Virus record (IMG/VR): IMGVR_UViG_3300025383_000009
Length of the DNA: 64,000 nt
Source of the DNA: a virus
Lineage: Duplodnaviria; Caudoviricetes
Reading direction: 5' to 3' (one strand)
Each line of letters begins with the position of its first letter. Position 1 is the stretch's first letter. This document shows positions 1 through 29,643 of this stretch, piece by piece. A program made the translations under genes and the position numbers. Below the pieces are notes generated by a model that saw only the letters and a program-made list of their open reading frames with translations, did not search any database and was not told the origin of the DNA.

Positions 1-421
1 ATCCGGTGATGGTCTCACCTACTATGAATGCTGGTAGAAGCTCTGAAGTAAATTGATTTTGAGATGTAGTACCATCATTTTGGCCTGCTATCGTCATGTT
101 TTGACATACGATCTGTGTATCTACAGGATTACGACCATACTGCATGCATACCTTAGCTGTTGCACCAGATGTGCTTCCAGTGATCTTTGTACCTATGGGG
201 AAATCAGTTTGTGTAGGAGTAGTGATGTTGATGATTGAGCCAGTGATCTGTGCTTTAAGATACATACGTTCTGCACCATCAAAGTGGTATTGGTTCCAAT
301 AGTCAAGAGCTTCATCGATACGCTCATTTAGTTGGACATCGTCCACGTTGATTTCAACTACTGGTTCGCCTAGAGCTCTAAGGCAATATTGAGTTAATTC
401 TTCTCTGCTAGTAACGGCCAT
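1..421 (-). CDS. gp13: Neck protein gp13 (N-terminal part; runs off the left edge; absent from the ORF track)
   Basis: Manual translation from ATG at 421: MAVTSREELTQYCLRALGEPVVEINVDDVQLNERIDEALDYWNQYHFDGAERMYLK, matching the T4 gp13 N-terminal pattern (RxLGxP..NVE...ALE....YHFDG). Confidence 0.88.
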   Translation of the reverse strand, partial: MAVTSREELTQYCLRALGEPVVEINVDDVQLNERIDEALDYWNQYHFDGAERMYLKAQITGSIINITTPTQTDFPIGTKITGSTSGATAKVCMQYGRNPVDTQIVCQNMTIAGQNDGTTSQNQFTSELLPAFIVGETITG

Positions 422-454: not shown

Positions 455-859
455 CTATAAGGTATTTATAATGGAGTGTATAGAGTAATCATGATCCTGG
501 ATACGAAGGTTATATTTAGTAGGTGGTTCAAATATCTTATCAGTGTCTTCATACTTTGATATGACTACTGTATCCATCCAGATAATAAAGTCAGCATCAA
601 ATATGTCTCTACTTTCTTGTAATGGAGCTATAAAATCTACGATAGTATAGTCATCATCAACATTAGCTAAGTCGGCTAGTCTTTTGGCTTGTCTAATTCG
701 TCCTTCATATGAGAAGTCCCAGTCTTGATATAGAGACCTTATCTTATCAGCATTTAACCATGTGACAGACTTTCCTTCTTGTTTAAGACTAGCCTCAAGT
801 CTACCTGCAAGAGTAGTCTTACCAGATCCAGGAAGACCCATGATTAATATTTTAAACAT
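455..859 (-). CDS. Adenylylsulfate (APS) kinase-like P-loop protein, short form
   Basis: Walker A GLPGSGKTT, LNADKIR (cf. CysC LDGDNIR), FSYEGRIRQAKRL; 134 aa; directly downstream of a sulfotransferase. Confidence 0.72.
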   Translation of the reverse strand: MFKILIMGLPGSGKTTLAGRLEASLKQEGKSVTWLNADKIRSLYQDWDFSYEGRIRQAKRLADLANVDDDYTIVDFIAPLQESRDIFDADFIIWMDTVVISKYEDTDKIFEPPTKYNLRIQDHDYSIHSIINTL

Positions 860-1640
860 ATTGTTTTTCTATCTCAACGAACCTATTGTATAGCTCTTCA
901 CCAAGAACTTCCTTTGCAGGCTTTGATATCTTTTCTAGTTTAGGTCTAATAGTATGTAAACCTTCAAATCCCCAAGCTAATAAGTCATCATCGTTGGTGT
1001 CATTCTGGATATTATTAAAGTCGTACTCATGTTTTGGTAACTCTAAGAATTGTTCTATACGAGCGATCTCATGTTTAGGATCGTTAACTATATCATCGTA
1101 CTTAACAACTATGATCTGATCTGGAACATCTTTCTTGATCTGTTGAGCACCTTCCATACAATCTTTAACCATATTAAACCACATCTCTGCCATCCGATTA
1201 TCATCAGTTGCTGGATAACCTTTTAATATAAGGTTCTTATCAAAGTCTGATTTAGTTTGGTTTTTAATGATAGTTAACCAGCTTGCCATGATACTAGGAA
1301 GATCACGTTCCACTACAATAACCTTGATCTTTTCCCCGAATAAAGCATTGACTGTAGGCATGTTTTTAGCCCATCCACGACCTTTATCTATGATGATTGG
1401 TTCTGACCTATGCTGCCAAAATGCCGGTAATATCGCCTTAGTTAAGTTTCTTGCTTGTTCTTCAAAGTAGTTAGCTTTAACTGTTGGATCCTCTCTCCAC
1501 GCTTCTTGCATCTTTACTGCTACGTTAAGCATAGGAGAAGTAGGAGTTACGTATATCGCTGGGTTTTGGTTAAGTATTGAAGATAAGACTGTTGAGCCAG
1601 ATCTTGGCAATCCCGATAGAAAGTGTAATTTTTGTTTCAT
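852..1640 (-). CDS. PAPS-dependent sulfotransferase family protein
   Basis: FLSGLPRSGSTVL (5'-PSB loop), IIDK, VIVVERDLPSIMASW (3'-PB motif), VKYDDIVNDP. Confidence 0.85.
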   Translation of the reverse strand: MKQKLHFLSGLPRSGSTVLSSILNQNPAIYVTPTSPMLNVAVKMQEAWREDPTVKANYFEEQARNLTKAILPAFWQHRSEPIIIDKGRGWAKNMPTVNALFGEKIKVIVVERDLPSIMASWLTIIKNQTKSDFDKNLILKGYPATDDNRMAEMWFNMVKDCMEGAQQIKKDVPDQIIVVKYDDIVNDPKHEIARIEQFLELPKHEYDFNNIQNDTNDDDLLAWGFEGLHTIRPKLEKISKPAKEVLGEELYNRFVEIEKQYV

Positions 1641-2494
1641 AATATAGACTTGATAGATGAGTGGATTAACTCTCTTTGTTCTGTATTTATAGATGCATTC
1701 CTGTATATGTCTATGAGCTGCGTGCTTATCTTCTTATACCAATCATCATCACGTTTATGATGGTCGACAAATAAACATGCAGCTGGTATATATTTGTCGA
1801 TCTGATTACTATTTTTATAATGATAGAGAAGATACCAAAGGTTCCATGTATTAGTCGGGTTATCTCGATACTCGTCTTCCATCATCTTAACGTATAGTTC
1901 AGGTCTTTCTTTCTTTTGAAAGTCTTGATCATGTACTAAGAATATCTCATCAGCATATAGTTCATTCTCATTACGATCTTTATGTATCCAACTTAGGTGT
2001 TCATAGATGGGTTGGTTCCATGTGTAATCAGCTCTAAGGTGGATCTTGTTAGTAGCTATAAAGTTTGGTGGTCCGACACGAACAGTCTTAGAGTAGATGT
2101 CTAGTCTATCACACGCTATGTTTGTTATAGTAGGTACAGCAGCTATGATGATATCCATCTGTTCACGTGTATTGATAGAGAAGTACTCATCAAGGTCTGG
2201 AGATAAACACCAAGTAACCTCTTCAGGCACCATAGCAAGGTTATGTCTACGAGCAACATCAAACCTCCATGGAGTAAACGTCTTTTGTTCGATGATTAAG
2301 TTTGGATCTTTCTTAGCATACTCTTGTAGTAGTTCCCATGAACCATCAGTAGAACCAGTATCTAACAGGACTCTATAATCATAAGGCTGAGTATAGTACA
2401 TCCATTTTTCAATGAACTTCTTTTCGTTCTTAAGTATAGTATATGCGGCTGTCTTAAACTTTTTCATTACCAAATTTTTCTCTTGCATGATCAA
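1637..2494 (-). CDS. Glycosyltransferase family 2 (SunS/flagellin-glycosyltransferase-like) with helical C-terminus
   Basis: ILKNE..FI, LLDTGSTDGS, WRFDVARRHNL, WCLSPDLDE (DxD), PIYEHL. Confidence 0.8.
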   Translation of the reverse strand: MIMQEKNLVMKKFKTAAYTILKNEKKFIEKWMYYTQPYDYRVLLDTGSTDGSWELLQEYAKKDPNLIIEQKTFTPWRFDVARRHNLAMVPEEVTWCLSPDLDEYFSINTREQMDIIIAAVPTITNIACDRLDIYSKTVRVGPPNFIATNKIHLRADYTWNQPIYEHLSWIHKDRNENELYADEIFLVHDQDFQKKERPELYVKMMEDEYRDNPTNTWNLWYLLYHYKNSNQIDKYIPAACLFVDHHKRDDDWYKKISTQLIDIYRNASINTEQRELIHSSIKSIL

Positions 2495-2831
2495 TTAATG
2501 AAGGATGATGACCCTTACGACAATCAAACTGTCGACATGATATTGGTCTATAACTATATATAGAACATTTCCCATCTATAAACATACCACAACCGCCCTC
2601 TTTCTTACGATACAGTGTGACTATAGGCCCGACTTGTGAGTTGTCAGCTCTATGCTGGTCAGTGGGGTTAATGAAGCTTAAAGGGTATAATCCAGAAGCT
2701 ATCTCTTCAGGTGTTAAGTATGGTGTTAACTTCTCACAACACAGTGAGCATGTACCACATGGCACATCTTCTATAGGCTCATCAGAACCTACTGAAGTTA
2801 AGTTGATGTTTATGATCTTATAACTATGCAT
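2454..2831 (-). CDS. YkgJ-family cysteine-cluster protein (CxxCxxCC; FliB-like putative Fe-S/Zn protein)
   Basis: PCGTCSLCC...GCGMF...KCSIYSYRPISCRQFDC. Confidence 0.75.
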   Translation of the reverse strand: MHSYKIININLTSVGSDEPIEDVPCGTCSLCCEKLTPYLTPEEIASGLYPLSFINPTDQHRADNSQVGPIVTLYRKKEGGCGMFIDGKCSIYSYRPISCRQFDCRKGHHPSLIDHAREKFGNEKV

Positions 2832-3444
2832 CTTGTTTTATAAAGAATACTTGTGTTAATCGGCCATCTTGTAAGGTGTCTCCAAAATAATCATTCGACT
2901 TATGATACGTATTACCTGGATAAAGTACTAACCTATTGAAAACGTTTCCTATAACATCTATAGGTTCAAATAGATCTTGATATAGCTGCGTATTTTCTAC
3001 CCTATTAATGGTCTTAAGCGTGTTATAACCTTCACCAGTTGACATATATGACTGCCATCTTTGTTCGTCTTTACACCTATAAAGTGATGTTCCTGAAGAT
3101 ACAGGCGCATCTGGATTAAGATACAGTATAGCGGCAAGATCCGTATCGTTGTCTTGATGAACCCAACTATCACCATCATCTTTTGTAGTTAGTTGAAAAT
3201 ACGATCGAATCGATACGTTAGTTAAGCCAAAGTGTTTATTAGCAAGACTAGCTATGTTTGTTAATACAGTGTTAGCATATATCTGGTCCAGATCCATCAC
3301 GTGTTTCGTTCTTTTTCCTGGCCAATCAGTGTGTTTACCATACATCTCTGTAAATTCTTTAGAATCATAAAATTGTTGGTTGATCGCCCATGTCCTAACT
3401 TGATTAGGAAACATTATGAAGTTATCAATGATCATCACACTCAT
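2824..3444 (-). CDS. 2OG-Fe(II) oxygenase-like protein (DUF6445-like)
   Basis: SWVHQD (HxD), AAILYLNP, FNRLVLYPGNTYHKS (distal His), GRLTQVFF. Confidence 0.7.
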   Translation of the reverse strand: MSVMIIDNFIMFPNQVRTWAINQQFYDSKEFTEMYGKHTDWPGKRTKHVMDLDQIYANTVLTNIASLANKHFGLTNVSIRSYFQLTTKDDGDSWVHQDNDTDLAAILYLNPDAPVSSGTSLYRCKDEQRWQSYMSTGEGYNTLKTINRVENTQLYQDLFEPIDVIGNVFNRLVLYPGNTYHKSNDYFGDTLQDGRLTQVFFIKQDA

Positions 3445-4133
3445 CTTAGTTCCTTTATTAATAAGTCTGCTACTTTAATATGCTCTTCCTTTGTCCAATA
3501 TTCTTTATCAGTATCTTTTCCAGCGATACCTCTAGAAGCGTTTAGTAAGTTTGTACCTCTTAGTATATAGTTTGGTACATCTGTAAAAACATCATCATCA
3601 CACTGATCACACCATACATCAAATGCTAACCATCTACATTCAGATTTATCTAGTATATTTTGGCAAGAAGTAAACATGACCTTAAACATCTCTTTATACC
3701 ATGCTTCTGAATTAAACGGTCCATATGCACCCCACATAAATTGTTTTGCATATGGACATGTGGTTGAGTCCATAAGATGGTATGACATGCGCTTAGTCTT
3801 TATACCATCATCTTCATTCATGTCAGTTATCCTATAATGGATATCAGGATGACTTGGTATACTATCATAATCATCAGCTAACCCAAATTCAAACCTTGTA
3901 GGAGCTGTCCATCCTATCAACACGATATCGTCTTTTGTTAGGTTTAAAGACTGTAGTTTTCTAGCTATACGCCAGTTACTAGATGCTGGCAAAGAGAAGT
4001 CTGTAAGCGGTTGACCTAACTTATCAGCAAGCACTGATGGCCATATCAATCGTTTTTGTTCCTCATCGTTTATACTTGCATCTATATAGAAGTTCCAGCC
4101 CCATGTATAGCTATCACCAAAAGTATATATCAT
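3441..4133 (-). CDS. SGNH/GDSL-like hydrolase fold protein (possible sugar acyl esterase/transferase)
   Basis: N-terminal YTFGDSYTWG (GDS motif), WPSVLA, SSNWRIAR, DIVLIGWT. Confidence 0.55.
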   Translation of the reverse strand: MIYTFGDSYTWGWNFYIDASINDEEQKRLIWPSVLADKLGQPLTDFSLPASSNWRIARKLQSLNLTKDDIVLIGWTAPTRFEFGLADDYDSIPSHPDIHYRITDMNEDDGIKTKRMSYHLMDSTTCPYAKQFMWGAYGPFNSEAWYKEMFKVMFTSCQNILDKSECRWLAFDVWCDQCDDDVFTDVPNYILRGTNLLNASRGIAGKDTDKEYWTKEEHIKVADLLIKELR

Positions 4134-5428
4134 AGCATGTCTTTTAATTCTTTTAGAGGAGCGTTCCAGTTATCATACTCACGCTGTCTAAGTACGGTTA
4201 AGTTATCACCATACCATTTTGTGTGGTAGCCTAATTTTGCCCACGTATAATAAGTTAGTATAGGTATGATGACTATAGATTCTTTACCTATAGCTCCAGC
4301 CGCATGGATCAAAGATGTGCAACTCGATACGATGATATCCATCTGATTGATATAATCTAATGTATCGTCCCATGTCTTGATCTTGTCTTTCAATGGTATG
4401 ACTCGTGGATGAGTAAAGTCCTCGTCTATATGAAAGGAGTATATCTCATAGTCTTCAGGTATAGAGTCGATCAGCTGTTCGAATGGTATGGTTCTATGTA
4501 AGTCTTGATCATACTTAGGATTTCCCATACACTTGATACCAATTCGTTTCTTGCGGTTATTTGGAAGTAGAGGTGCTTTGTTTAATGGAGTTAAGTATGG
4601 ACCATACCATAGATCGTCTTCTTCTAGGTCTAAGTATGTGGGCGATGGCATAGAGTATGTCCATAGCCAATCATGCGGTATAGCATTGATGTTAGAAACA
4701 GTCTTGAAACCGTTCCTCTCAAATATAGCAGCGATATCTTTTCTATCAGTATACCATATAGGATTCATACCAACATCTTTAAAGTGTTTCATGAACCGTA
4801 CTGATATGATCTCGTCACCTATACCGCCTTCTGCACAGAGGATTATAGTCTTTCCTGGCTGTGGAGTACCTTCCCATAGTTGACTCTTAGGAAATTTAAA
4901 CTCGTGCCAGATATTCAACTTACGACCATCGAGTAACACATGACGAAGGCCTTCTTTAAACTTACCGTTCCTTAAGTCGTATGTTCCTAGGTTAAAGTTG
5001 ACTCTAAAGTTAATATCTTGTGTATGTGGTTCTGTAAGTATCTTGCGAAGGATCTTTTCTCCTTCATCCTTCTTATCAAGCAAAAAGAAACACATGGCTT
5101 TGTCCATCTGGTTTGGATGGTCGTTGGGTTGTTCTTTCTCGTTAATACCCACATACGTTAATGCTTCTATGGGTTTATTTAAGTTGAGGTATGCTCTGAT
5201 GATGTTGACTCGTGCATCAAACTTAGCGTGTGGAGTTTGTACTAATGCATAGATCCTTTCAGCAAGCTCTAACGTATCATTGAACTCTCGAATATCTGCA
5301 TAAAGCTTCCCGATCTGATCGATCTCTTCTATCCGTTGAGCATAAGGCTTTAGTAGATCGAGGACGATCTTAGCTTTGTCAAACTGTTTGAGATGTATAA
5401 AAAACTCAGCTGTTGCTAGGGGATTCAT
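4130..5428 (-). CDS. TPR-repeat protein fused to a GT9-like glycosyltransferase domain
   Basis: Helical TPR-like N-terminal half, then LWEG...AEGGIGDEI..VRF, RIGIKCMGNP, TWDDTLDYINQMDIIVSSCTSLIHAAGAIGK. Confidence 0.72.
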   Translation of the reverse strand: MNPLATAEFFIHLKQFDKAKIVLDLLKPYAQRIEEIDQIGKLYADIREFNDTLELAERIYALVQTPHAKFDARVNIIRAYLNLNKPIEALTYVGINEKEQPNDHPNQMDKAMCFFLLDKKDEGEKILRKILTEPHTQDINFRVNFNLGTYDLRNGKFKEGLRHVLLDGRKLNIWHEFKFPKSQLWEGTPQPGKTIILCAEGGIGDEIISVRFMKHFKDVGMNPIWYTDRKDIAAIFERNGFKTVSNINAIPHDWLWTYSMPSPTYLDLEEDDLWYGPYLTPLNKAPLLPNNRKKRIGIKCMGNPKYDQDLHRTIPFEQLIDSIPEDYEIYSFHIDEDFTHPRVIPLKDKIKTWDDTLDYINQMDIIVSSCTSLIHAAGAIGKESIVIIPILTYYTWAKLGYHTKWYGDNLTVLRQREYDNWNAPLKELKDML

Positions 5429-6116
5429 TAGGTATCACGAAGTAGTTCACGAATATGTCACGCTTAATCTCTTGATGCACACTATGTATCTTGTAGTTAT
5501 TATCTATAAGCCATTGATCAAAGTCTTCATAGTTTTGTTTGGATACTTCTATGAACATCTTTGGTCTACACCTATCGATAGTTTCTTTTAGACCAGCAAG
5601 AGCTACCATCTCCATGCGCTCTACGTCCATCTTAATAAAATTAACATCGATGTCTTTAAACAATGAATCACCTGTTACTACACGGACAGGTTCAAGAGCT
5701 AAATCATTCTCGCTGTCATATAGAGTAGGACTGATGGTCGCTGCACCTAAGTTGTCTTTACCATATATTAAATGTGGGTAACCAACGCACTCTCTATCTC
5801 CCAGTGCTAGTCCAATAAAATCTAAGTTGACGTTATGACAATAGTTCAGAGCTACGTTAGCAAGCAACAACCTATAGGAGCGTGGGACTGGTTCAACGAC
5901 ATAAATGGTCTTAGCGTCTGTGAACTTACTGAAGTAAACAGTATGATTACCGATGTTAGCACCAATGTCTATCAATACTGTATCAGCATCGATGTGCTGC
6001 TTCATGAACTCTAGTTCCTGTATCTCAAAGAACCTATTATTGACTAGATGAGATTGTATGATATCTTTTGGATTATCTAGTATCCATCTCATGTCTTTTT
6101 TGATTTCATAACTCAT
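5406..6116 (-). CDS. FkbM-family SAM-dependent methyltransferase
   Basis: IDIGANIGNH, VVEPVP, FIKMDVERME, RPKMFIEV. Confidence 0.88.
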   Translation of the reverse strand: MSYEIKKDMRWILDNPKDIIQSHLVNNRFFEIQELEFMKQHIDADTVLIDIGANIGNHTVYFSKFTDAKTIYVVEPVPRSYRLLLANVALNYCHNVNLDFIGLALGDRECVGYPHLIYGKDNLGAATISPTLYDSENDLALEPVRVVTGDSLFKDIDVNFIKMDVERMEMVALAGLKETIDRCRPKMFIEVSKQNYEDFDQWLIDNNYKIHSVHQEIKRDIFVNYFVIPNESPSNS

Positions 6117-6676
6117 CGTGTACTCACCTTTTCTTTATTAACGTACCACTTGATATGGTACTCAACGACTACATTATTAAACGTCCTTGCTGTATAGTCA
6201 CACTGTTCTTCAGTCATCTCTTTAAATCTTGGTAACCAATACTCGTCTAACACTGGTTGATAATCTAATACATACATGTCTACATTATATATGAACCCTA
6301 TTGGTGTCTCAGTTCCACCCGCATCCATGTCTTTTTGGTTTCGTGTCTTAGAGAACATATCAAGGGTATGTGGATAGATAGGACGCCTGTGTGTGGGGTC
6401 TATGAGGAAAGTATCATGGTTGGGGTGTGGGACATGGACATCGATGATCGTGCCGTGCTTACATACTCGGTATAGCTCTTGTACGCAGTTGAAGAACCCT
6501 TGACCAAGGTGTTCTAGGATATGATGTGCTATGACTCCATCAATAGAGTCATCATCAAATGGGAGTCTTTCATTCTCGATATCGACAACAAAGTCTGGAT
6601 TAGATCCAGCATCGATGTCTATATTCAAGTAACCAGGATATCGTTTAGTACCAGAACCAAGATTTATCTTCATCAT
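6113..6676 (-). CDS. Class I SAM-dependent methyltransferase (Methyltransf_11-like)
   Basis: KINLGSG..YLNID, LPFDDDSIDGVIAHHILEHL, ELYRVCKHG. Confidence 0.82.
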   Translation of the reverse strand: MMKINLGSGTKRYPGYLNIDIDAGSNPDFVVDIENERLPFDDDSIDGVIAHHILEHLGQGFFNCVQELYRVCKHGTIIDVHVPHPNHDTFLIDPTHRRPIYPHTLDMFSKTRNQKDMDAGGTETPIGFIYNVDMYVLDYQPVLDEYWLPRFKEMTEEQCDYTARTFNNVVVEYHIKWYVNKEKVSTR

Positions 6677-6692
6677 TCACCTTTTATTTCAT

Positions 6693-6730
6693 ATTATATA
6701 CCATATTATATATAATGTAAAATTATTTAT
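6693..6730 (-). promoter_or_regulatory. Composite promoter: late-type CATAAATA overlapping a sigma70-type TTTACA-N17-TATAAT
   Basis: -35 TTTACA at 6721-6716, 17-nt spacer, -10 TATAAT at 6698-6693; heads the 6676-to-455 enzyme cassette. Confidence 0.65.
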
Positions 6731-7911
6731 GTGATGCTTGTTAACGCGGCCATATGACTATAAAATTTTCCAGATCCCACCGACTTCCAGTTAGTACCAC
6801 CCGCGACAGTCTGGACTGGGCTGGATCTATGAGTTGTAGTATTATCACCTAGTGTACCATTACTGTTGTTACCCCAGGTCCATAATGTGCCATCTGTCTT
6901 GATGGCTGCTGAGTAATAAGCACCACATGCTACTAGTTTCCAGTTAGTACCACCAGCAACAGTCTGGATTGGACTGGATCTATGGACTAAAGTATTGTCA
7001 CCTAGTGTACCATAGCCATAATAATTACCTCCCCAGAGCCATAATGTGCCATCTGTCTTGATGGCTGCTGTATGATAGGATCCACATGCTACTAGGTTCC
7101 AGTTAGTGCCACCTGCGACGGTCTGGATAGGACTAGATCTATGGACTTTAGTATTGTCACCTAGTTGACCAGCGTTATTATCACCCCAAAGCCATAAAGT
7201 ACCATCAGTCTTAACAGCCGCTGTATAAGTTGATCCACACGCAACCTGTTTCCAATTAGTGCCACCAGCTACGGTTTGGATAGGACTAGATACAAGGGTT
7301 GTAGTATTGTTACCTAGTTGACCATAGCTACCAAGCCCCCATGTCCATAGCGTACCGTCTGTCTTAATGGCTGTTGTAAAATTGCTTCCAGCTGCGACTT
7401 GTTTCCAGATAGCTCCACCGGCTACTGTTTGAACCGGACTAGATTTACGAACACTCGTATTGTCACCCAGTTGACCAAAGGGGTTCTGTCCCCAAGTCCA
7501 TAGTGTGCCATCAGTCTTGATGGCTGCTGTATATAAAGATCCACAAGCCACTTGTTTCCAGTTAGTGCCACCAGAAACAGTCTGGACAGGACTGGATCTA
7601 TGGGTTATGGTATTGTCACCTAGTCCACCATAGCTGTTTTGTCCCCAAAGCCATAGTGTACCGTCTGTCTTGATGGATGATGTATGATATTGTCCACCTG
7701 CTACTAGTTTCCAAATAGTACTACCAGCAATAGTTTGGACTGGACTAGATCTAGGAGTTGTAGTATTGTCACCTAAAGTTCCAATGTTGAAGTTATATCC
7801 CCAAAGCCATAAACCCGCATCAGAGAACAAGTTGATGTTGACAAAGGCATCAGCGAAGTCTGCTGGATATCCGCCGTTATTAAACTTAAAGTTAGTTGGG
7901 TTCTTTGCCAT
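6727..7911 (-). CDS. RCC1/BLIP-II-type seven-bladed beta-propeller protein (copy 1)
   Basis: About 7 tandem ~52-aa repeats of consensus SSPVQTVAGGTNWKQVAxGxxxTAAIKTDGTLWxWGxNxxGxLGDNT. Confidence 0.85.
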   Translation of the reverse strand: MAKNPTNFKFNNGGYPADFADAFVNINLFSDAGLWLWGYNFNIGTLGDNTTTPRSSPVQTIAGSTIWKLVAGGQYHTSSIKTDGTLWLWGQNSYGGLGDNTITHRSSPVQTVSGGTNWKQVACGSLYTAAIKTDGTLWTWGQNPFGQLGDNTSVRKSSPVQTVAGGAIWKQVAAGSNFTTAIKTDGTLWTWGLGSYGQLGNNTTTLVSSPIQTVAGGTNWKQVACGSTYTAAVKTDGTLWLWGDNNAGQLGDNTKVHRSSPIQTVAGGTNWNLVACGSYHTAAIKTDGTLWLWGGNYYGYGTLGDNTLVHRSSPIQTVAGGTNWKLVACGAYYSAAIKTDGTLWTWGNNSNGTLGDNTTTHRSSPVQTVAGGTNWKSVGSGKFYSHMAALTSIT

Positions 7912-8404
7912 CTTTTTCTCTTAACCTAAATGTTTGTATTAGTCCTGAGTCAAACGAATGAAACAGCCATGGTCTAAACATCACGCCTTGTCCTGGTTTT
8001 AATAAGTAGTTTATCGTTAAGTCCCATGCAAATAAATCTCTGTAAGGTAACTCATGCCCTTCTAATGCGTTCTTTGGACCTTTCAAGCTCTCGTATACGT
8101 TGAAGGTACTGTTATCAAGAGCTACAGCAAACACCCATTCATTTAGTGTATCAAAGCCCTCAAAGTGTATGAATAAGCTAGGATACCTAAACCTACCCGA
8201 GTATTCCTCTAACACTTCTACCTCTGCACCTAGTATAGCACTAAACTGTTCGTTGGCATCAGGCGCTATCAGGTAAAATTCTGGTATCTCCTTACCAAAC
8301 TCTGACTCTTTGTACTGGAGATCTCGCACACAGTTATGCATCTGTGTCGCTTGGTCCTGATTAAAGAACCCGTCTATAGTAACGATCTTGACCAGAGGAT
8401 GCAT
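7892..8404 (-). CDS. Divergent 2OG-Fe(II) oxygenase-like (DUF6445-like) protein
   Basis: IDGFFN start, VMFRPWLFHS, LIQTF resemble ORF 2824-3444; a canonical HxD is not evident (IHFE). Confidence 0.45.
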   Translation of the reverse strand: MHPLVKIVTIDGFFNQDQATQMHNCVRDLQYKESEFGKEIPEFYLIAPDANEQFSAILGAEVEVLEEYSGRFRYPSLFIHFEGFDTLNEWVFAVALDNSTFNVYESLKGPKNALEGHELPYRDLFAWDLTINYLLKPGQGVMFRPWLFHSFDSGLIQTFRLREKDGKEPN

Positions 8405-9612
8405 TACATGTCGTCCATCGAGTCATCACGGATGCATGCTGTATGATAGACTCCAGCTGTCACTAGTATCCAGTTAGTGCCACCTGAAACAGTCTGGATA
8501 GGACTGGATCTATGGACTATACTAGAACCATCACCTAGTTGACCTTGGCTGTTATGTCCCCAGGTCCATAGTGTACCATCTGTCTTGATGGCTGCTGTAT
8601 GATAGAATCCACTCGCTACTTGTTTCCAGTTAGTACCACTAGCAATAGTCTGGACAGGACTGGATTTAGCGGCTGCAGTATTATCACCTAGTTGACCATA
8701 GGTGTTATATCCCCAGAGCCATAGTGTACCGTCAGTCTTGATGGATATTGTATAATACCGTCCACATGCCACCTGTTTCCAATTAGTACCACCGGCAACA
8801 GTCTGGATAGGACTGGATTTAGCGGCTGCAGTATTATCACCTAGTGCTCCATAGAAGTTATTTCCCCAGGTCCATAGTGTACCATCGGTCTTGATGCATG
8901 CTGTATGATAGGTTCCACCTGCCACCTGTTTCCAGTTAGTACCACCAGCAACAGTCTGGACAGGACTGGATTTAGGAACTGTAGTATTATCACCTAGTTG
9001 ACCATAGGTGTTATATCCCCAGAGCCATAAGGTACCGTCTGTCTTGATGCATGCTGTATGATATTGTCCACCCGCCACTTGTTTCCAGTTAGTACCACCA
9101 GCAACAGTCTGGACAGGACTGGATTTAGCGGCTGCAGTATTATCACCTAGTGCACCAACGCCGTTATGTCCCCAGGTCCATAGGGTACCGTCTGTCTTGA
9201 TGCATGCTGTATGATAGTAACCGCCCGCCACTTGTTTCCAGTTAGTACCACCAGCAATAGTCTGGATAGGACTGGATCTATGGACTATACTAGAACCATC
9301 ACCTAGTTGACCATAGGCGTTCTGTCCCCAGGTCCATAGTGTACCATCGGTCTTGATGCATGCTGTATGACCGTAGCCACCCGCCACCTGTTTCCAGTTA
9401 GTACCACCAGCAACAGTCTGGACAGGACTGGATTTAGCGGCCGCAGTATTATCACCTAGTGCACCAAGGGAGTTAAATCCCCAGAGCCACAACCCAGCAA
9501 ACCTGAAAGTATCGACTAGTTCAGGATACCTGTCTATGAGGTATGACTTCTCGACCAATGTTGACCCGATGTCAATACCGGCACTATTCTTATAGTTGGT
9601 GGTTAATCCCAT
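8404..9612 (-). CDS. RCC1/BLIP-II-type beta-propeller protein (copy 2)
   Basis: Same ~52-aa repeat, about 7 copies, after a unique ~38-aa N-terminus. Confidence 0.85.
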   Translation of the reverse strand: MGLTTNYKNSAGIDIGSTLVEKSYLIDRYPELVDTFRFAGLWLWGFNSLGALGDNTAAAKSSPVQTVAGGTNWKQVAGGYGHTACIKTDGTLWTWGQNAYGQLGDGSSIVHRSSPIQTIAGGTNWKQVAGGYYHTACIKTDGTLWTWGHNGVGALGDNTAAAKSSPVQTVAGGTNWKQVAGGQYHTACIKTDGTLWLWGYNTYGQLGDNTTVPKSSPVQTVAGGTNWKQVAGGTYHTACIKTDGTLWTWGNNFYGALGDNTAAAKSSPIQTVAGGTNWKQVACGRYYTISIKTDGTLWLWGYNTYGQLGDNTAAAKSSPVQTIASGTNWKQVASGFYHTAAIKTDGTLWTWGHNSQGQLGDGSSIVHRSSPIQTVSGGTNWILVTAGVYHTACIRDDSMDDM

Positions 9613-9615
9613 GGT

Positions 9616-10239
9616 TTACTCGGTTATGTTGATACCAGCTAAGTCTTCTGAACTAGCACAAGCATCGATAGCTTGTAGCTTGGTGTATTCCCAGTCAAAA
9701 GATGATTGTACGTGTACTAACACTGTAGACAACACTGTCTGAACATCAGAAGGAGCCAATGTTACCCATGTCTCTCTGTCTTGTTTCCAGTTGATGTTAT
9801 CGGTACTAGCTTGTGCGTTCATTAAGACAAGACGTGTAGCTCTGTCAGTACCGAAACTATAGTCAGTCCCGTTTAAGTTTACTGTAACACCGCTGTTTTC
9901 TTTGGTCCATCGTTCTGCTGCGACTCGGTCTTTTAGCATAGCCTTGGCTGCGTCTAATGGTAGAGGTTGTACAATGTAACTCATGATAGCTACGGTGTCT
10001 GTGAATTCCCAGAATGGACCATGTAACATCTCTATCGTGGGGTTGAACTCGGGATTCTCTGTACCTTGGACTGGTAGGATCTTGATGTTATCTGATACTG
10101 TGATAGGGTCTAAGTTATCATTAGTAGCAGGCAAAGTAGTATCTACCTCACACTCCTCTAAGATAGTGTTCTCAAACTTAAATCGGCTCCAACGCATCGG
10201 GCCTAAGATTACTGTGTTATCGTGAACTATTACAAACAT
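9616..10239 (-). CDS. DUF4376-like tail-fibre-assembly/chaperone-type protein
   Basis: C-terminal half LKDRVAAERWTKENSGVTV...TDRATR...INWK...WVTL...HVQSSFDWE is the DUF4376 pattern found beside fibre genes. Confidence 0.6.
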   Translation of the reverse strand: MFVIVHDNTVILGPMRWSRFKFENTILEECEVDTTLPATNDNLDPITVSDNIKILPVQGTENPEFNPTIEMLHGPFWEFTDTVAIMSYIVQPLPLDAAKAMLKDRVAAERWTKENSGVTVNLNGTDYSFGTDRATRLVLMNAQASTDNINWKQDRETWVTLAPSDVQTVLSTVLVHVQSSFDWEYTKLQAIDACASSEDLAGINITE

Positions 10240-10253
10240 TTTTATTTTCCTTT

Positions 10254-11456
10254 TTAACTTGATGGGTATAGTTTTCCTGCTTCGTAGAAGAATACGGCTG
10301 CTGTATACACTCCACCCGCCACCTGTTTCCAGTTAGTACCGCCAGCAATAGTCTGGATAGGACTGGATTTACTGACTAGAGTGTTGTCGCCTAGGTAACC
10401 TTGGGCGTTATTTCCCCAGATCCATAGTGTACCATCGGTCTTGATAGCTGCTGTAGCACCAAGATTAGCCACCTGTTTCCAGTTAGTACCACCAGCAACA
10501 GTTTGCACAGGACTGGATTTATCGACTACAGTATTGTCACCTAGTTGACCAACGATGTTATATCCCCAGATCCATAGTGTACCGTCCGTCTTGATAGCTG
10601 CTATATTATAGCCTCCACCTGCCAACTGTTTCCAGTTAGTACCACTAGCAACAGTCTGGACAGGACTGGATTTATTGACTATAGTGTTGTCACCTAATTG
10701 GCCATTGGAGTTCTGTCCCCAGGTCCATAGTGTACCATCTGTCTTGATAGCTGCTATATAAGAGATTCCACTTACCACCTGTTTCCAGTTAGTACCGCCA
10801 GCAATAGTCTGGATAGGACTAGATCTATGGGTTATACTAGTACCATCACCTAGTTGACCTTGTTGGTTCCATCCCCAGGTCCATAGTGTACCATCTGTCT
10901 TGATAGCTGCTGTATTAGTATATCCACAACCCACCTGTTTCCAGTTAGTACCACCAGCAACAGTCTGGACAGGGCTGGATTTTAGGCTTGCAGTATTGTC
11001 ACCTAGTTGACCATATAAGTTATGTCCCCAGGTCCATAGTGTACCATCTGTCTTGATAGCTGCTGTATGATATTGTCCACCTGCCACCTGTTTCCAGTTA
11101 GTACCACCAGAAACAGTTTGGATAGGACTAGATCTATGGGTTATACTAGAACCATCACCTAGTGCACCATAGGTGTTACGTCCCCAGGTCCATAGCGTAC
11201 CATCTGTCTTGATACATGCTATATGATAGTTTCCACCCGCCACTAGTTTCCAGTTAGTACCACCAGCAACAGTTTGCACAGGACTGGATTTATCGGCTGC
11301 ATTAGTAAGTGCTGCAGTATTGTCACCTAGTTGACCATAGGTGTTACGTCCCCAGGTCCACAGTGTTCCAGTCGCAGCGTACTGGTCGATCATAGCATAG
11401 TCGGTGACGAATAGCTGTTCTAGGTCGCCTTGACGGCTTTGGAATTGTCCGGCCAT
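10254..11456 (-). CDS. RCC1/BLIP-II-type beta-propeller protein (copy 3)
   Basis: Same ~52-aa repeat, about 7 copies. Confidence 0.85.
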   Translation of the reverse strand: MAGQFQSRQGDLEQLFVTDYAMIDQYAATGTLWTWGRNTYGQLGDNTAALTNAADKSSPVQTVAGGTNWKLVAGGNYHIACIKTDGTLWTWGRNTYGALGDGSSITHRSSPIQTVSGGTNWKQVAGGQYHTAAIKTDGTLWTWGHNLYGQLGDNTASLKSSPVQTVAGGTNWKQVGCGYTNTAAIKTDGTLWTWGWNQQGQLGDGTSITHRSSPIQTIAGGTNWKQVVSGISYIAAIKTDGTLWTWGQNSNGQLGDNTIVNKSSPVQTVASGTNWKQLAGGGYNIAAIKTDGTLWIWGYNIVGQLGDNTVVDKSSPVQTVAGGTNWKQVANLGATAAIKTDGTLWIWGNNAQGYLGDNTLVSKSSPIQTIAGGTNWKQVAGGVYTAAVFFYEAGKLYPSS

Positions 11457-11579
11457 CCTATGCTCCTACAACTTTAATGCTTATATTAAACTGCATGTAT
11501 TATATCATCCTGTTGTTAACCAGAATATCAATAATAAAGGTACACCGCCACTTATATTAGGTTATATTTGTTATCCTAT

Positions 11580-11587
11580 TATTTATA
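11580..11587 (-). promoter_or_regulatory. T4-type late promoter TATAAATA upstream of the RCC1 cluster
   Basis: Exact motif in the 140-nt intergenic gap; a TGnTATAAT extended -10 also occurs at 11507-11499. Confidence 0.6.
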
Positions 11588-11598
11588 AGAAAAACTAC

Positions 11599-12765
11599 CT
11601 AGTACTTGCGACCAGGATACTTCTTAAGTGCATAGTCCATGTCTGTACGACCAGGATTCTCTTCGTACCAGCCTTTACCAGTATGGATATTAAGCACGGC
11701 TTGGAAGTATTCCTCATACATCTTAGCCACATGATCTAATGAGAAGTTATTGATAGCCCAATCTCTACAGTCTTGAGGTTTGATACGATCGATGTTCTTG
11801 AGAGCCCATACGAACTCTTCAAACGTACGGCATCTGTAACCTGTAACACCATGGATATTGTTTTCTGTGAATGAACCCCAGTCAGTGGTGATGGTTGGTG
11901 TACCAGAGAATAAGTTCTCGATCTGTACTCCACCAAATGGCTCAACGTACATAGAAGCGACCATAGAGACTTTAGCTTTTGACATAAGCTCTCTGCGTTT
12001 CTCTACGTCTGCATAACCGATGAACTCTACATGAGATGGGATCTCTTTATAACCACATGCTTGTAGGTTATTCTGACCTGCAACCTTAAGTTTCATGCCA
12101 GCTTTCTCTGTAGCCTGGATAGCTATATGGATACCTTTACCTTCATACACTCGACCTAAGAATAAGCAGTAGTCTTCCTTAGTTTCAGGTGCAAAAGTAA
12201 AGTCATCTGGGTTGAAATAATTTGGTATTACTGTGTCATAGAAGTTGTTTTTACATGTACCGACAGCCTCAAGACCATAGTATGCATGCATGATAGCATA
12301 TGATTCAAAGATCTTAAACCTTGCCCAGTGTCCACCAGCGTATCCGATACCGGGTTCTACGCAAATTAAGTCTGGATGTGCATCACACACTGGACGAGTA
12401 CCTGATCCCCAGAATGGTAAAATAAAATCGTGTTTTTGTTTTCTAAGTCCTACTTCTCGAATCGCGTTTTTGTAAAATGTCTGATAAGCATGGTCGTTTG
12501 TGGCAAACTTGAAGAAGTTCTTACGCCAATCATAAGAACCATATGCTATCTCTAGATCTTTATTAGTAGTAACTGTAACGTGTTCAGTGGCTTCAACAAT
12601 TGAATCTTCATGACCATAATGAATCACTTCATGACCGCGTTCGGTCATCATCTTACAGAACTTTAGAACTTTCATTGTATATGCACAGGCCACATATTCT
12701 GGAGAAGTTACTGTATGAGGGAGGCCTAGTGCATGGAATCTAAATTTATTACTCATTGTTATCAC
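11599..12765 (-). CDS. Glycosyltransferase family 4 (GT-B); true start is probably the second Met (MSNKF)
   Basis: LFLGRVYEGKGIHIAI, VEFIGYAD, EPFGGVQIE..SGTPTITTDWG (ExFG...E motif). Confidence 0.85.
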   Translation of the reverse strand: MITMSNKFRFHALGLPHTVTSPEYVACAYTMKVLKFCKMMTERGHEVIHYGHEDSIVEATEHVTVTTNKDLEIAYGSYDWRKNFFKFATNDHAYQTFYKNAIREVGLRKQKHDFILPFWGSGTRPVCDAHPDLICVEPGIGYAGGHWARFKIFESYAIMHAYYGLEAVGTCKNNFYDTVIPNYFNPDDFTFAPETKEDYCLFLGRVYEGKGIHIAIQATEKAGMKLKVAGQNNLQACGYKEIPSHVEFIGYADVEKRRELMSKAKVSMVASMYVEPFGGVQIENLFSGTPTITTDWGSFTENNIHGVTGYRCRTFEEFVWALKNIDRIKPQDCRDWAINNFSLDHVAKMYEEYFQAVLNIHTGKGWYEENPGRTDMDYALKKYPGRKY

Positions 12766-13429
12766 CTTTTAATTTACAATTATTGAAATGCCATCTATAC
12801 ATGTTATTTGAACCGCCTAACATGTTACAGTGGGGACATACTATTTTTGTTTTAGGTTTTCTCATGGCAATTTTTGCTTCTTCTGTCACTATCTTGCCTT
12901 TATGAGAATCACTAATCTTTTTCTTGGTTTCTTCTGAATGCATTATTACTTGTTTACTTCGTGCTGATTTTATTTTTGATTTAGTTTCTTCTGTTCTTTT
13001 TCTATCTTTTAATTTTGATTTAGTTTCTTCTTTACATGGTACACCTTTATTCCATGCAGCAAATCCTTTTCTTGCTTGACTCATTCTTTGTTTTTCTTCA
13101 TCTGTTCTTGGAATACCTTTATTCCATGGTGTAATACCAGGTATAGCACCATCTAATCCATTCTCTATCTTAAGATTAGCCCATTTGTCAGAGTTAACTA
13201 TGTCCATCTCTTCAGATATTAGTGTTGCAAACTCAACCAATTTACTTTTATCTGTAAATGGTTCAGAAACCCAAATCGTCTTAACATGATATAAACCATG
13301 TTTATTGATATGTCTAACCCAGTGTTTACCAGATCCTTGATACTTATATGGATCAGATTTAGTAGTCTTACCAAGATATCTCATCCCAGTAATACTATGT
13401 TCTTTTATATAAAGGTAAGTTGGTTTCAT
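12749..13429 (-). mobile_element. Free-standing GIY-YIG-like (Seg-type) homing endonuclease with NUMOD3-like repeats
   Basis: TYLYIK...RYLGKT, YQGSG, basic PWNKG/HSEETKKKIS repeats, terminal CPHC..HFNNC; AT-rich and wedged between two enzyme genes. Confidence 0.75.
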
Positions 13430-14053
13430 CTATTCCTTATAGTGTTCAAATAATTTTGTTATCAACGCTTTATGTGATAAAGCACCATTTAAACCTTTTA
13501 ACTCTACAACTTTTTCTGGCTTGTCTGCAAAGAACTCGTCTACTGCTTTCTTTACACCAGGCCAATATTCATCACCATAATCATCTACTAATATGACACC
13601 ACCAGGAACCACACGATCGTATATCAACTTAAGTGGATCCATTATACTTATATATAAATCCCCGTCAAGGTGTGCAAAGGAAATCTTTTCTGGTACTTGT
13701 TCTGGCTTGATATCACTGAACCAACCCTTACGTATATATGGTATTCTTATACCATCATAGGTAAAGTTCTCACATAGTAGATCGAGCGATGTCTTCATCT
13801 CACCCGGTAAGTTCTCTTCCGATTCTGGTAATCCTTCAAAGCTATCATATACATATAGCCATTTATCTGAGATGTATGATATCAACTTTGAGGTGTGACC
13901 GCAGTAGCAGCCAAACTCAACTATATCACCTTCAAGGTGTTGCGTCTCAAGCACATAATGACATATATGAACTATCCTTGAGAAGTCTTGCATCTCAAGT
14001 GTGTTCCTTAGTAAGACATCAGCCTTACGTGAAACGTTTATATCATGCGCCAT
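13430..14053 (-). CDS. TylF/MycF-family sugar O-methyltransferase
   Basis: GDIVEFGCYCG, YDSFEGLP, KGWF, FAHLDGDLY, PGGVILVDDY. Confidence 0.88.
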   Translation of the reverse strand: MAHDINVSRKADVLLRNTLEMQDFSRIVHICHYVLETQHLEGDIVEFGCYCGHTSKLISYISDKWLYVYDSFEGLPESEENLPGEMKTSLDLLCENFTYDGIRIPYIRKGWFSDIKPEQVPEKISFAHLDGDLYISIMDPLKLIYDRVVPGGVILVDDYGDEYWPGVKKAVDEFFADKPEKVVELKGLNGALSHKALITKLFEHYKE

Positions 14054-15654
14054 TATCTATTCCTGATAGTATTCAAGTAGTTTTTGATATCACCATTAGG
14101 CATAGCAAACCTACTTACTAATTCTGGCTTCATCATCTCTACCATCGTATATACGGCTTCTTCTGTTCCGATAGTACCTTGATCTAGTAGCTGTCTTATT
14201 GTGTCATAGTAGTACTTATTAAACTCTGTAACCTGATCCTTTGACCCACCAAATAATGTTGCACGACATACATAACTTGGTTTAGTTCCTACTATATTTG
14301 TCATGACATTGATATTACAACCATGGATCTCAGAGTTTGTTTGGTACGGGTATGATGTTAAGAAGAACTTATCTTTAGGTAGGAACAAGAAGTTATATGT
14401 ACCGATAGGTTCTGTAATACCAAAGCTGTTTGACATACCTGAATCTATCCAATAGAATCGTTTAGATCCTAGCGGGTTTTGTTCTGCCACGTCTTGTAGT
14501 AACTTGTTCTTAATGAGTGTTAGTGGTATGTAGTATGGGTTTCTTAGTGCAGAGTCTTTGATCCAATCAGATTGATTAATGAACGCATCGCTGTTGATGA
14601 TGGTTTGTATCTCTTGGAACGGCGTGTTGTTCTGGATATCTTGTAGTGTTAATACTCTACACTCAATACGATTGTTTGATGTAGCAATGCTTAGTTGTTT
14701 GCGTCTTAAACGTATATAGTCATGATACTTAGGATCTGCATAGACTACTAATGGGTTACGTACAGATAATAGATGATCTAGACCTTTGATATAGTGTTCT
14801 TCGAATGATCGATCTCCACGTGATATATCAACTGCCATGGTAACTAGTGTTACATCACCAGGATACTCATACGTATAGTCCATGGCTCTGAAATCAATAT
14901 AAGGAGCAGTGCGATTCTTTAGTAGTTCCTTAGGATAGAAGTCATATGGAACTTTAGAATCGTCTGGTCTTTGTCCAGCCATCTTAGAGCAATGGTCACC
15001 AAGGTGTCGAGCATACTCGCCATTAAGATAAACACCTTTGAATCCTAATGCAGTAAACTTACGATCGATGTTCCATTCATTATGCCACTTCTCTACTCGA
15101 CCTAACATGATAAGGTCATCTCTGCGTCTTAAGTTAGGAGAGCCGCACCATGCATGCCATGCTAAGTGATGGTCAGTTATCTTCCATGGTTTCTTCCAAA
15201 AGAACTCACCGTCTACAAGACCTTTTTGATAGGAGTCTATACCTTGGAACTCGAATGTTCTCCATGAGATGTCAACAACACCGACTTCTCGATACTTTTG
15301 TAGGATTGCTTTAGATTTATTCAGGTAACCTGGTTGTGTAAGTTCCCAGTCGTCTTCAAGGTAAAAGATGTAATCTGAATCACAATATGAGCACATAAAA
15401 TCCATCGCCCACCATTGTGATCTGTTTCTTGGGAAGCATATGACGTCACATATATCTCCATACTCTTCAACTAACTTCTCAAATACACCTTCCTCAGCGG
15501 AGTCATCTACGATCACCATCTTGGTGACATAGTCTTGGGTATCAAAGAATGATTGAAGTGTCTTGGCTAAGACATCTAGTCTGTTACAGGATAGTACAAA
15601 GGTAGTTGTATCTGAATCTGGTTGGTCAACGGTGTGGAACTTCACTTGTGACAT
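14053..15654 (-). CDS. Two-domain glycosyltransferase: GT2-like N-terminus fused to an HtrL/WlaTC-like domain
   Basis: N-terminal SCNR...VIVDDS...YIFYLEDDW; C-terminal VTLVTM.VDI.R, YWIDSG, LFGG, GTEE. Confidence 0.65.
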   Translation of the reverse strand: MSQVKFHTVDQPDSDTTTFVLSCNRLDVLAKTLQSFFDTQDYVTKMVIVDDSAEEGVFEKLVEEYGDICDVICFPRNRSQWWAMDFMCSYCDSDYIFYLEDDWELTQPGYLNKSKAILQKYREVGVVDISWRTFEFQGIDSYQKGLVDGEFFWKKPWKITDHHLAWHAWCGSPNLRRRDDLIMLGRVEKWHNEWNIDRKFTALGFKGVYLNGEYARHLGDHCSKMAGQRPDDSKVPYDFYPKELLKNRTAPYIDFRAMDYTYEYPGDVTLVTMAVDISRGDRSFEEHYIKGLDHLLSVRNPLVVYADPKYHDYIRLRRKQLSIATSNNRIECRVLTLQDIQNNTPFQEIQTIINSDAFINQSDWIKDSALRNPYYIPLTLIKNKLLQDVAEQNPLGSKRFYWIDSGMSNSFGITEPIGTYNFLFLPKDKFFLTSYPYQTNSEIHGCNINVMTNIVGTKPSYVCRATLFGGSKDQVTEFNKYYYDTIRQLLDQGTIGTEEAVYTMVEMMKPELVSRFAMPNGDIKNYLNTIRNR

Positions 15655-15678: not shown

Positions 15679-15716
15679 ATTATAATATAGATTGTGTTTA
15701 ATGTAAAATTATTTAT
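15679..15716 (-). promoter_or_regulatory. Composite promoter: late-type GATAAATA overlapping a sigma70-type TTTACA-N17-TATAAT
   Basis: -35 at 15707-15702, 17-nt spacer, -10 at 15684-15679; 18 nt identical to the 6713-6730 element. Confidence 0.65.
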
Positions 15717-29623: not shown

Positions 29624-29643
29624 TTCATGTCCTTAATTATAAA

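Follow-up and report, generated by a model that had tools for sequence, protein, structure and literature searches.

What might two clusters of glycan-building and glycan-decorating enzymes modify when they are encoded among the tail fiber genes of a virus? This question is raised by a stretch of 64,000 nucleotides (the window) from the IMG/VR virus record IMGVR_UViG_3300025383_000009. Pfam, PHROGs, and NCBIfam agree on the presence of two enzyme cassettes between collagen-like fiber genes and the neck gene gp13, both on the minus strand (Table 1). Cassette A occupies positions 15654 to 11599 and cassette B positions 6676 to 455. An earlier sequence-only reading of this region proposed that the enzymes glycosylate, methylate, and sulfate the virion, and all the enzymes it named are present at the positions it assigned, on the minus strand and between four collagen-like fiber genes and gp13. 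Our analysis centers on the core of cassette B, which consists of a class I methyltransferase, a protein that joins a tetratricopeptide repeat (TPR) domain to a GT9-like glycosyltransferase (TPR-GT9), and a sulfotransferase of the type that uses 3'-phosphoadenosine 5'-phosphosulfate (PAPS). This core tracks genes for RCC1 propellers, not genes for collagen fibers. It is read here as a dedicated partner of the RCC1 propeller fiber proteins, to which a YkgJ-type protein and a kinase are often added.

Propeller genes beside the cassette B core

TPR-GT9 has more than 1000 metagenomic homologs. Among 50,697 deposited phage records, it was found only in S-SRM01, BUCT-ZZ01, and one single-cell marine virus (four records, with S-SRM01 present twice). 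These three carriers are exactly the three best RCC1 matches, and each has the two genes near one another. To establish the usual setting, 78 viral loci with TPR-GT9 homologs (32-99% identical) were annotated using the proteins of the window, and dereplication at 90% identity left 45 lineages. The typical order is a collagen/S74 fiber gene, RCC1 propellers with a DUF4376 protein and the small protein orf170, a methyltransferase, TPR-GT9, a sulfotransferase (with or without YkgJ and the kinase), and gp13. In 39 of the 45 lineages (35 of the 38 that have at least 3 kb of upstream sequence), no more than 3 kb separates RCC1 from TPR-GT9. The most constant neighbor is the class I methyltransferase, which is found within 1 kb in 39 lineages, and a sulfotransferase is located within 3 kb in 34. 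The orf170 gene was found in 33 lineages and a YkgJ gene adjoins TPR-GT9 in 22, while FkbM, GT2, DUF6445, and SGNH genes are occasional.

This association survives rearrangement. In loci L025, L026, and L072 the RCC1 array is inverted, yet it still abuts the TPR-GT9 gene. A reverse scan starting from RCC1 recovered TPR-GT9 in 54 of 77 loci, and in most of the loci without it the contig stops at the RCC1 array. Locus L070, from a 276-kb genome with direct terminal repeats (G006), looked like an exception because in-frame TAG codons made open reading frame (ORF) calling miss RCC1. Its RCC1 repeats are encoded ~0.8 kb upstream of TPR-GT9 and read through one or two TAG codons in frame, a hint that this complete jumbo phage may recode TAG.

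Two 100%-complete relatives (276 kb and 216 kb) with the cassette B core carry RCC1 repeats next to the module, and no collagen repeat was found anywhere in either genome. The sequence-only reading had included the Thr/Ser-rich fibers among the likely acceptors, and had set down in advance that cassettes in relatives lacking collagen fibers would speak against it. Because these two complete genomes carry the module and RCC1 but no collagen, collagen fibers are not an obligatory acceptor of cassette B, and by that reading's own criterion this part of the proposal is refuted. The decoration chemistry varies strongly among lineages, since the module of one close relative (L004:13926-16552) holds an extra, Pfam-recognized GT9, a carbamoyltransferase, a second sulfotransferase, and a GT4. 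Searches of the literature on cyanophage virion glycosylation and RCC1 tail-fiber propellers turned up no account of the cassette B module, and the S-SRM01 paper contains no virion proteomics.

The IMG/VR virus contig to which the window belongs is 127.6 kb long and 74% complete, and it has been detected in freshwater metagenomes. Its source is a freshwater T4-like phage related to Kyanoviridae, and the cassettes, which are probably expressed late, reside in a hypervariable tail-fiber region. The gp13-like gene bounds this region. Every gene from 2 to 57816 is carried by the minus strand, with tight packing and frequent overlaps. A megablast search of the region against deposited phages gave no match, and distant blastn matched only fragments of S-SRM01 and S-SKS1. 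There is no psbA gene on the contig, and thus a cyanobacterial host is assigned solely on the basis of relatives.

Table 1. Features of the cassette region in the window, and of the heptose cassette in related loci
Feature	Position	Strand	Supporting match or location
gp13-like neck/head-tail adaptor gene, C-terminal part	2..421	-	phrog_211 'head-tail adaptor Ad2' 5.6e-12
Short APS-kinase-like P-loop kinase, 134 aa	455..859	-	Pfam APS_kinase 51.8 bits (gathering threshold 21.1)
PAPS-type sulfotransferase	852..1640	-	Sulfotransfer_3 1.8e-19 (71.3 bits vs gathering threshold 27); Sulfotransfer_1 4.8e-12
GT2-family glycosyltransferase	1637..2494	-	Glyco_tranf_2_4 2.8e-8; phrog_13126 1.1e-28
YkgJ-type CxxCxxCC Fe-S/Zn protein	2454..2831	-	PF03692 2.7e-8
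DUF6445, putative 2-oxoglutarate (2OG)-Fe(II) oxygenase	2824..3444	-	PF20043 5e-15
SGNH/GDSL-like esterase or acyltransferase (candidate), 230 aa	3441..4133	-	Motifs and predicted fold
TPR-GT9: TPR domain (residues 1-167) and compact GT9-like GT-B glycosyltransferase (187-432)	4130..5428	-	Predicted fold
FkbM-family methyltransferase	5406..6116	-	Methyltransf_21 8e-19; TIGR01444 2.2e-25
Class I S-adenosylmethionine (SAM) methyltransferase	6113..6676	-	Methyltransf_11 1.1e-6
18-nt element ATAAATAATTTTACATTA with T4-late-promoter-like motif ATAAATA, head of cassette B	6713..6730	-	48 nt upstream of start codon
RCC1-type seven-blade propeller protein (a)	6727..7911	-	WD40_RLD 2.5e-73; RCC1 2.1e-60
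orf170, small double-stranded beta-helix (2OG-oxygenase-like) protein in propeller array, 170 aa	7892..8404	-	hhalign vs DUF6445
RCC1-type propeller protein (b)	8404..9612	-	WD40_RLD 4.3e-112; 57.7% identity to S-SRM01 protein
DUF4376 tail-fiber-type protein	9616..10239	-	PF14301 6.5e-11; phrog_10508 'tail fiber protein'
RCC1-type propeller protein (c)	10254..11456	-	WD40_RLD 7.1e-91
GT4 glycosyltransferase	11599..12765	-	Glycos_transf_1 2.2e-16; phrog_3408 8.2e-196
NUMOD3 homing endonuclease	12749..13429	-	NUMOD3 6.6e-10; phrog_314
TylF-family O-methyltransferase	13430..14053	-	PF05711 2e-23
GT2 domain fused to HtrL/YibB domain (GT2-HtrL)	14053..15654	-	Glycos_transf_2 8.7e-9; HtrL_YibB 7.6e-12; TIGR02192 1.1e-14
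Second identical copy of the 18-nt element, head of cassette A	15699..15716	-	56 nt upstream of first gene
Four collagen-like fiber genes	15709-19737, 19777-23886, 23915-26191, 26251-27855	-	Collagen Pfam 1e-22 to 1e-68, Peptidase_S74, SPRY
ADP-heptose cassette genes	Relatives		HldE 3.6e-87; ADP-glyceromanno-heptose 6-epimerase (HldD) 3.2e-61; small HAD phosphatase; WbuC-type cupin

Enzymes, donors, and expression signals

Pfam, PHROGs, and NCBIfam scans of TPR-GT9 returned only weak TPR matches, and a separate profile confirmed the TPR domain (E 2.5e-27). An AlphaFold (AF2) model of the protein (432 aa), built from 32 homologs, reached a predicted local distance difference test score (pLDDT) of 85 and a predicted template modeling score (pTM) of 0.82, with helices spanning residues 3-167 and an alpha/beta domain spanning 187-432. 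When the whole model was searched with Foldseek, SPINDLY ranked first, together with bacterial (XcOGT) and human OGT, because a TPR plus GT-B architecture is common to both sides of the comparison. The glycosyltransferase domain alone (residues 187-432) is closest to the GT9 structure 3tov (VIA Z 14.3), WaaF (1psw; 14.2), TibC (13.7), and WaaC (13.0-13.1), and its two Rossmann lobes can be superposed on WaaC/WaaF. Residues G202, G204, D205, E206, R211, R312, and H375 do not vary even in homologs of only 27% identity, and their constancy suggests that the active site is conserved. A prediction of the complex between TPR-GT9 and propeller (a), with both supplied as alignments, scored 0.01 and weighs neither for nor against binding. 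Bacterial matches to the whole TPR-GT model (TM ~0.7) in the AlphaFold database clusters A0A1U7IG50 and A0A7V4PD70 are fused to FkbM methyltransferase domains, an arrangement that mirrors the FkbM gene adjoining TPR-GT9 in the window.

A clue to the donor sugar comes from relatives. In at least 15 related loci, the module is adjoined by an ADP-heptose pathway cassette, which is often encoded on the other strand. The cassette lies between the module and gp13 in L013 (3113-5691) and likewise in L014, L016, L032, L051, L053, L058, L064, L083, L084, L129, and L134. Its cupin may replace the GmhA isomerase. In lineages with HldE and HldD, the transferred sugar is probably heptose from ADP-heptose.

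The sulfotransferase carries a PRSGS 5'-phosphosulfate-binding motif, and its GLPRSGST segment aligns to the corresponding loop of protein-tyrosine sulfotransferases (TPSTs). TPSTs are its nearest PDB sequences, at weak scores (E 3.6e-4 to 0.06), and in this alignment the TPST 'GEE' segment faces 'TPT'. Because the likeness is weak and the catalytic Glu is unaligned, either a sugar or a protein could be the sulfate acceptor. The neighboring kinase had been labeled an APS kinase, of which the Pfam match stands; the protein is a short, APS-kinase-like one that covers only profile positions 4-91 of 152. Its NCBIfam scores against stand-alone APS-kinase models are 34-48 bits versus cut-offs of 127-244. 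It aligns to archaeal, plant, and fungal APS kinases in the PDB through the P-loop and the substrate-binding segment, with NAD in place of DGD and FIAP in place of FISP. This short form is conserved among relatives, and in about half of them the kinase domain is fused to a nucleotidyltransferase-like domain of ~130 aa with an HxGH...ISATKIR signature (L013:2341-3147, L006:13319-14113, and others). The fusion partner, which could be a minimal sulfurylase-like or sugar-activating domain, is absent from the contig of the window.

The remaining genes of cassette B, for FkbM, SGNH, DUF6445, and GT2 proteins, may be elaborations specific to lineages. No Pfam match was obtained for the 3441-4133 protein. 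Its residues G6-D7-S8, N53, and H218 are invariant in 25 homologs, and its block V reads EEH, not DxxH. The AF2 model has a pLDDT of 78, with low confidence in an insert (85-140). Its 50 best Foldseek rows consist almost entirely of esterases, lipases, and acyltransferases of the GDSL/SGNH type, among them carbohydrate esterases and PatB (best E 2.4e-3, TM 0.4-0.5), and a profile search against PDB sequences gave no useful match. The DUF6445 protein has an invariant H96-x-D98...H181...R195 set. The orf170 protein of the propeller array aligns to DUF6445 by hhalign (probability 61%, E 8e-5), with HxE...H placed on HxD...H; among its members H80 never varies, and at least 90% of them keep E82 and H149. 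Atlas leads for orf170 were DUF6445 and 2OG-FeII_Oxy_3. Profile searches of PDB sequences gave no useful match for either protein, and both are probably small 2OG-type oxygenases.

Two functional labels in cassette B were considered and set aside. The YkgJ protein was examined as a FliB-type flagellin lysine methylase, and this identity was dropped because the FliB paper notes only a similar Cys motif, CX4CX3CC versus that of PF03692 (PMC8598068). The GT2 enzyme had been called SunS-like, a label that is not adopted because its PDB sequence matches reach only E ~0.05 and include GmaR. This GT2 is an accessory gene found in 12 of the 78 loci. Its listed TTG start overlaps the YkgJ gene by 41 nt (2454-2494), and the true start is probably an internal ATG.

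Between cassettes A and B lie three RCC1 propellers, the DUF4376 protein, and orf170. The second of the collagen-like proteins on the far side of cassette A (19777-23886) has a SPRY domain (9.1e-9) between collagen segments, and the collagen fiber genes are followed by a radical-SAM gene and a 2OG-FeII_Oxy_5 gene (28247-30288, minus strand).

In cassette A, the NUMOD3 endonuclease, which the sequence-only reading did not mention, sits between TylF and GT4 and splits the cassette. Relatives L159 and L177 also carry an endonuclease in the GT2-HtrL/GT4 slot, which suggests a homing site there. No PDB sequence relative was found for the GT2-HtrL protein. The GT4 protein is 72% identical to a homolog in Synechococcus phage ACG-2014f; there, a collagen-repeat gene lies two small genes upstream of the homolog's gene, and a tail-fiber gene lies two genes downstream of it. 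GT2-HtrL and GT4 are paired in ~38 of 44 loci, and TylF joins them in just three. The pair may immediately precede gp13, immediately follow a collagen gene, or lie in unrelated neighborhoods of 234-388-kb contigs that lack RCC1 and have their collagen genes elsewhere. Because it is found in these three different kinds of place, cassette A is an independent, separately mobile GT2-HtrL/GT4 module, and a link to collagen fibers is possible but weak. The GT2-HtrL, TylF, and GT4 enzymes would form a glycan-building group around this pair, which may act on the Thr-rich collagen fibers or extend the same glycan.

Both cassettes share candidate expression signals with structural genes. The 18-nt element at their heads has two matches in the window versus 0.21 expected, and a TATAAATA-like motif is present at 11580-11586, upstream of propeller (c). 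The coding strand carries 16 ATAAATA motifs, 13 of which closely precede gene starts (for the most part those of structural genes) in a block where intergenic DNA amounts to only 2.8%; one is located 25 nt upstream of the gp13-like gene. These elements are suggestive of T4-type late promoters for both cassettes. None of the cassette proteins has a membrane segment or signal peptide, and no flippase, polymerase, or carrier gene was found.

Proposed fiber decoration and competing explanations

The explanation we favor, with about an even chance of being correct, is that these enzymes carry out glycosylation (possibly heptosylation), methylation, and sulfation of virion fiber proteins in the cytoplasm, chiefly of the propellers. 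What the analysis itself shows is the identity of the enzymes, their synteny, the promoter motif, and the solubility; both the acceptor and the donor in this explanation are inferred. Fiber-protein decoration is favored because of the TPR fusion, the precedents of FlmG and TibC, the adjacency of RCC1, the late-type promoter, and the solubility of the enzymes. In this respect the virion decoration proposed earlier retains circumstantial support from the TPR fusion, the late-type motifs, the soluble enzymes, and the synteny with fiber genes, while its choice of acceptor needs revision. In the cytoplasm, the TPR domain would bind a newly made fiber protein, most likely a propeller, and the GT-B domain would then transfer a sugar onto it. 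The methyltransferases and the sulfotransferase would cap the sugar or the protein, and the kinase may boost the supply of PAPS. The order of these steps and the benefit to the phage are likewise our inference.

Several observations weigh against fiber decoration. First, both the modification of a virion protein and the presence of RCC1 proteins in the virion are presumed. Second, the assignment of the central enzyme is structural: PF01075 (Glyco_transf_9) matched none of 28 diverse TPR-GT9 members at E <= 0.01 and one of 32 close members at E 0.031, the glycosyltransferase domain has no PDB sequence match, and its hhalign probability to a phage PF01075 member is 0.7%. Because no sequence method places the domain in GT9, 'GT9-like' is a statement on fold only; the earlier TPR-GT9 and SGNH labels thus stand on predicted fold and motifs and lack Pfam support. 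Third, the kinase falls short of a full-length APS kinase with respect to the lid, the DGD and FISP motifs (including the FISP serine), and an equivalog-level score. Fourth, as noted earlier for the window, nucleotide-sugar synthesis genes are missing, and none was found on the whole contig either, at its 74% completeness. ADP-heptose genes, an NTP-transferase, and an epimerase were all sought there and not found, and so the donor must be supplied by the host or by genes in the quarter of the genome that the contig lacks. Fifth, ATAAATA is only as frequent overall as chance predicts, and it coincides in part with stop codons and AT-rich spacers; hence, its enrichment may be partly compositional, and the late-promoter evidence is suggestive only. 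Finally, GT9 enzymes and HtrL classically belong to the synthesis of the lipopolysaccharide (LPS) core, and methyltransferases of the FkbM/RfbT type act on O-antigens.

The last of these points leads to the strongest rival, a serious one that we nevertheless regard as clearly less likely. The cassettes might add heptose, methyl, and sulfate groups to host LPS or extracellular polysaccharide, thereby blocking superinfection or preventing progeny from sticking to debris, and the fiber neighborhood would be merely a permissive hypervariable region. This possibility draws on the fold shared with the LPS heptosyltransferases WaaC and WaaF, the origin of the HtrL/YibB domain in an LPS-core locus family, a match of the FkbM protein to the V. 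cholerae RfbT O-antigen methyltransferase family (3e-5), the ADP-heptose cassettes of relatives, and the distance of cassette A from fiber genes in some jumbo contigs. It is also the published interpretation for pelagimyophage and cyanomyophage genes of this kind, since glycosyltransferases in this region of T4-like marine phages have been read as modifiers of the host O-chain (PMC7029224). However, LPS-core enzymes have no use for a fused TPR domain, and membrane, flippase, and lipid-carrier components are absent. Furthermore, a permissive region alone hardly explains a near-obligate RCC1 adjacency that holds over lineages 32-99% identical and survives inversion, and the cassettes share their late-promoter-like heads with structural genes.

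Less probable still, in our judgment, is that the Thr/Ser-rich collagen-like fibers are the main acceptors of both cassettes and bear a methylated, sulfated coat like that of giant-virus fibrils or BclA. Their composition is suitable: 52-68% of their Gly-X-Y triplets have Thr or Ser at Y, and Pro makes up only 1-3% of residues. Thr-linked glycans stabilize or decorate Pro-poor collagen helices in BclA and in Riftia collagen. A collagen/S74 fiber gene also lies upstream of the RCC1 array in 17 of the 25 lineages with enough sequence, the ACG-2014f homolog of GT4 is located near a collagen-repeat gene, the GT2-HtrL/GT4 pair comes immediately after a collagen gene in ~9 of 44 loci, and collagen genes are present in all five jumbo records with the pair that were tested. 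Collagen-like genes are common in large phages, though, which makes co-occurrence at the genome level weak evidence. Moreover, RCC1 genes always intervene between the collagen gene and the enzymes, cassette A often sits beside gp13 with no collagen gene in its flank, and the two complete relatives described above combine the cassette B core and adjoining RCC1 with a lack of collagen.

It is very improbable that the propellers act as lectins for a free or carrier-bound sulfated and methylated glycan (serving as assembly glue, decoy, or shield) and are not acceptors themselves, because although beta-propellers often bind carbohydrates and the synteny would fit a ligand-receptor pair equally well, there is no carrier, polymerase, or export gene, and the TPR fusion points to a protein partner.

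Precedents and possible consequences for aquatic phages

Decoration of fiber proteins by TPR-GT9 would have parallels among known systems. The flagellin O-glycosyltransferase FlmG of Caulobacter combines a TPR domain, which binds the flagellin substrate, with a GT-B domain (PMC7591256). FlmG, OGT, and SPINDLY share with TPR-GT9 an N-terminal TPR and a C-terminal GT-B domain, and the parallel extends to soluble cytoplasmic enzymes that modify a surface-filament protein before its export or assembly. The phage domain differs in being compact (~245 aa) and nearest to GT9, not GT41, with no homology detected at the sequence level. Its donor is probably heptose, versus pseudaminic acid, GlcNAc, or fucose, and its acceptor is a presumed one. 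The bacterial autotransporter heptosyltransferases (BAHTs) TibC and AAH act in the cytoplasm, where they hyperglycosylate a repetitive adhesin with heptose from ADP-heptose (PMC4358343). TibC resembles TPR-GT9 in its GT9-like fold, and phage relatives carry ADP-heptose genes beside TPR-GT9. BAHTs, however, lack a TPR domain and form iron-binding dodecamers, no sequence similarity to TPR-GT9 was found, and heptose transfer by the phage enzyme is a prediction. A similar comparison can be made with WaaC/WaaF and HldE/HldD, which represent the best structural matches of the glycosyltransferase domain (Z 13-14.2) and the same ADP-heptose genes that occur in relatives. WaaC and WaaF are without a TPR domain, whereas the phage enzyme is unmatched by Pfam GT9 and is partnered with fiber proteins, not with lipid A-core genes.

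Modification of virion proteins by the products of adjoining genes has precedents in viruses as well. In mycobacteriophages, glycosyltransferase genes adjoin virion genes and modify virion proteins (capsid and tail tube), by means of other enzyme families, in another host phylum, and on other targets. To our knowledge, no sulfotransferase, TPR-GT, or heptose pathway has been reported for these systems. The surface fibers of Mimivirus and BclA, some of them collagen-like, carry methylated sugars made by dedicated gene clusters. Those clusters hold full nucleotide-sugar pathways, whereas the strongest genetic link of the phage module is to propellers and not to collagen.

A more specific version of fiber decoration can be put forward only tentatively. 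TPR-GT9 might O-heptosylate RCC1-propeller receptor-binding proteins in T4-like phages of freshwater and marine picocyanobacteria, with methylation and sulfation of the glycan by dedicated enzymes to follow, and some of these phages might bring their own supply of ADP-heptose and PAPS. If true, this would be a previously undescribed and widespread system for post-translational modification of fibers, and phage virions would gain their first reported cases of a sulfated glycoprotein and of protein heptosylation. The usual view that glycosyltransferases in this hypervariable region modify the host O-antigen would also be challenged. The module is very common in metagenomes and almost absent from cultured phages. 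Two cultured carriers are available, S-SRM01 and BUCT-ZZ01, the latter of which infects the model cyanobacterium S. elongatus PCC 7942.

Tail fibers decide the host of a phage. If the propellers are coated with glycans, then sequence alone would fail to describe the receptor-binding surface. In that case, glycan decoration would be a hidden variable that bears on which hosts abundant aquatic phages infect, on how stable their particles are, and on how many are lost to grazing or adsorption.

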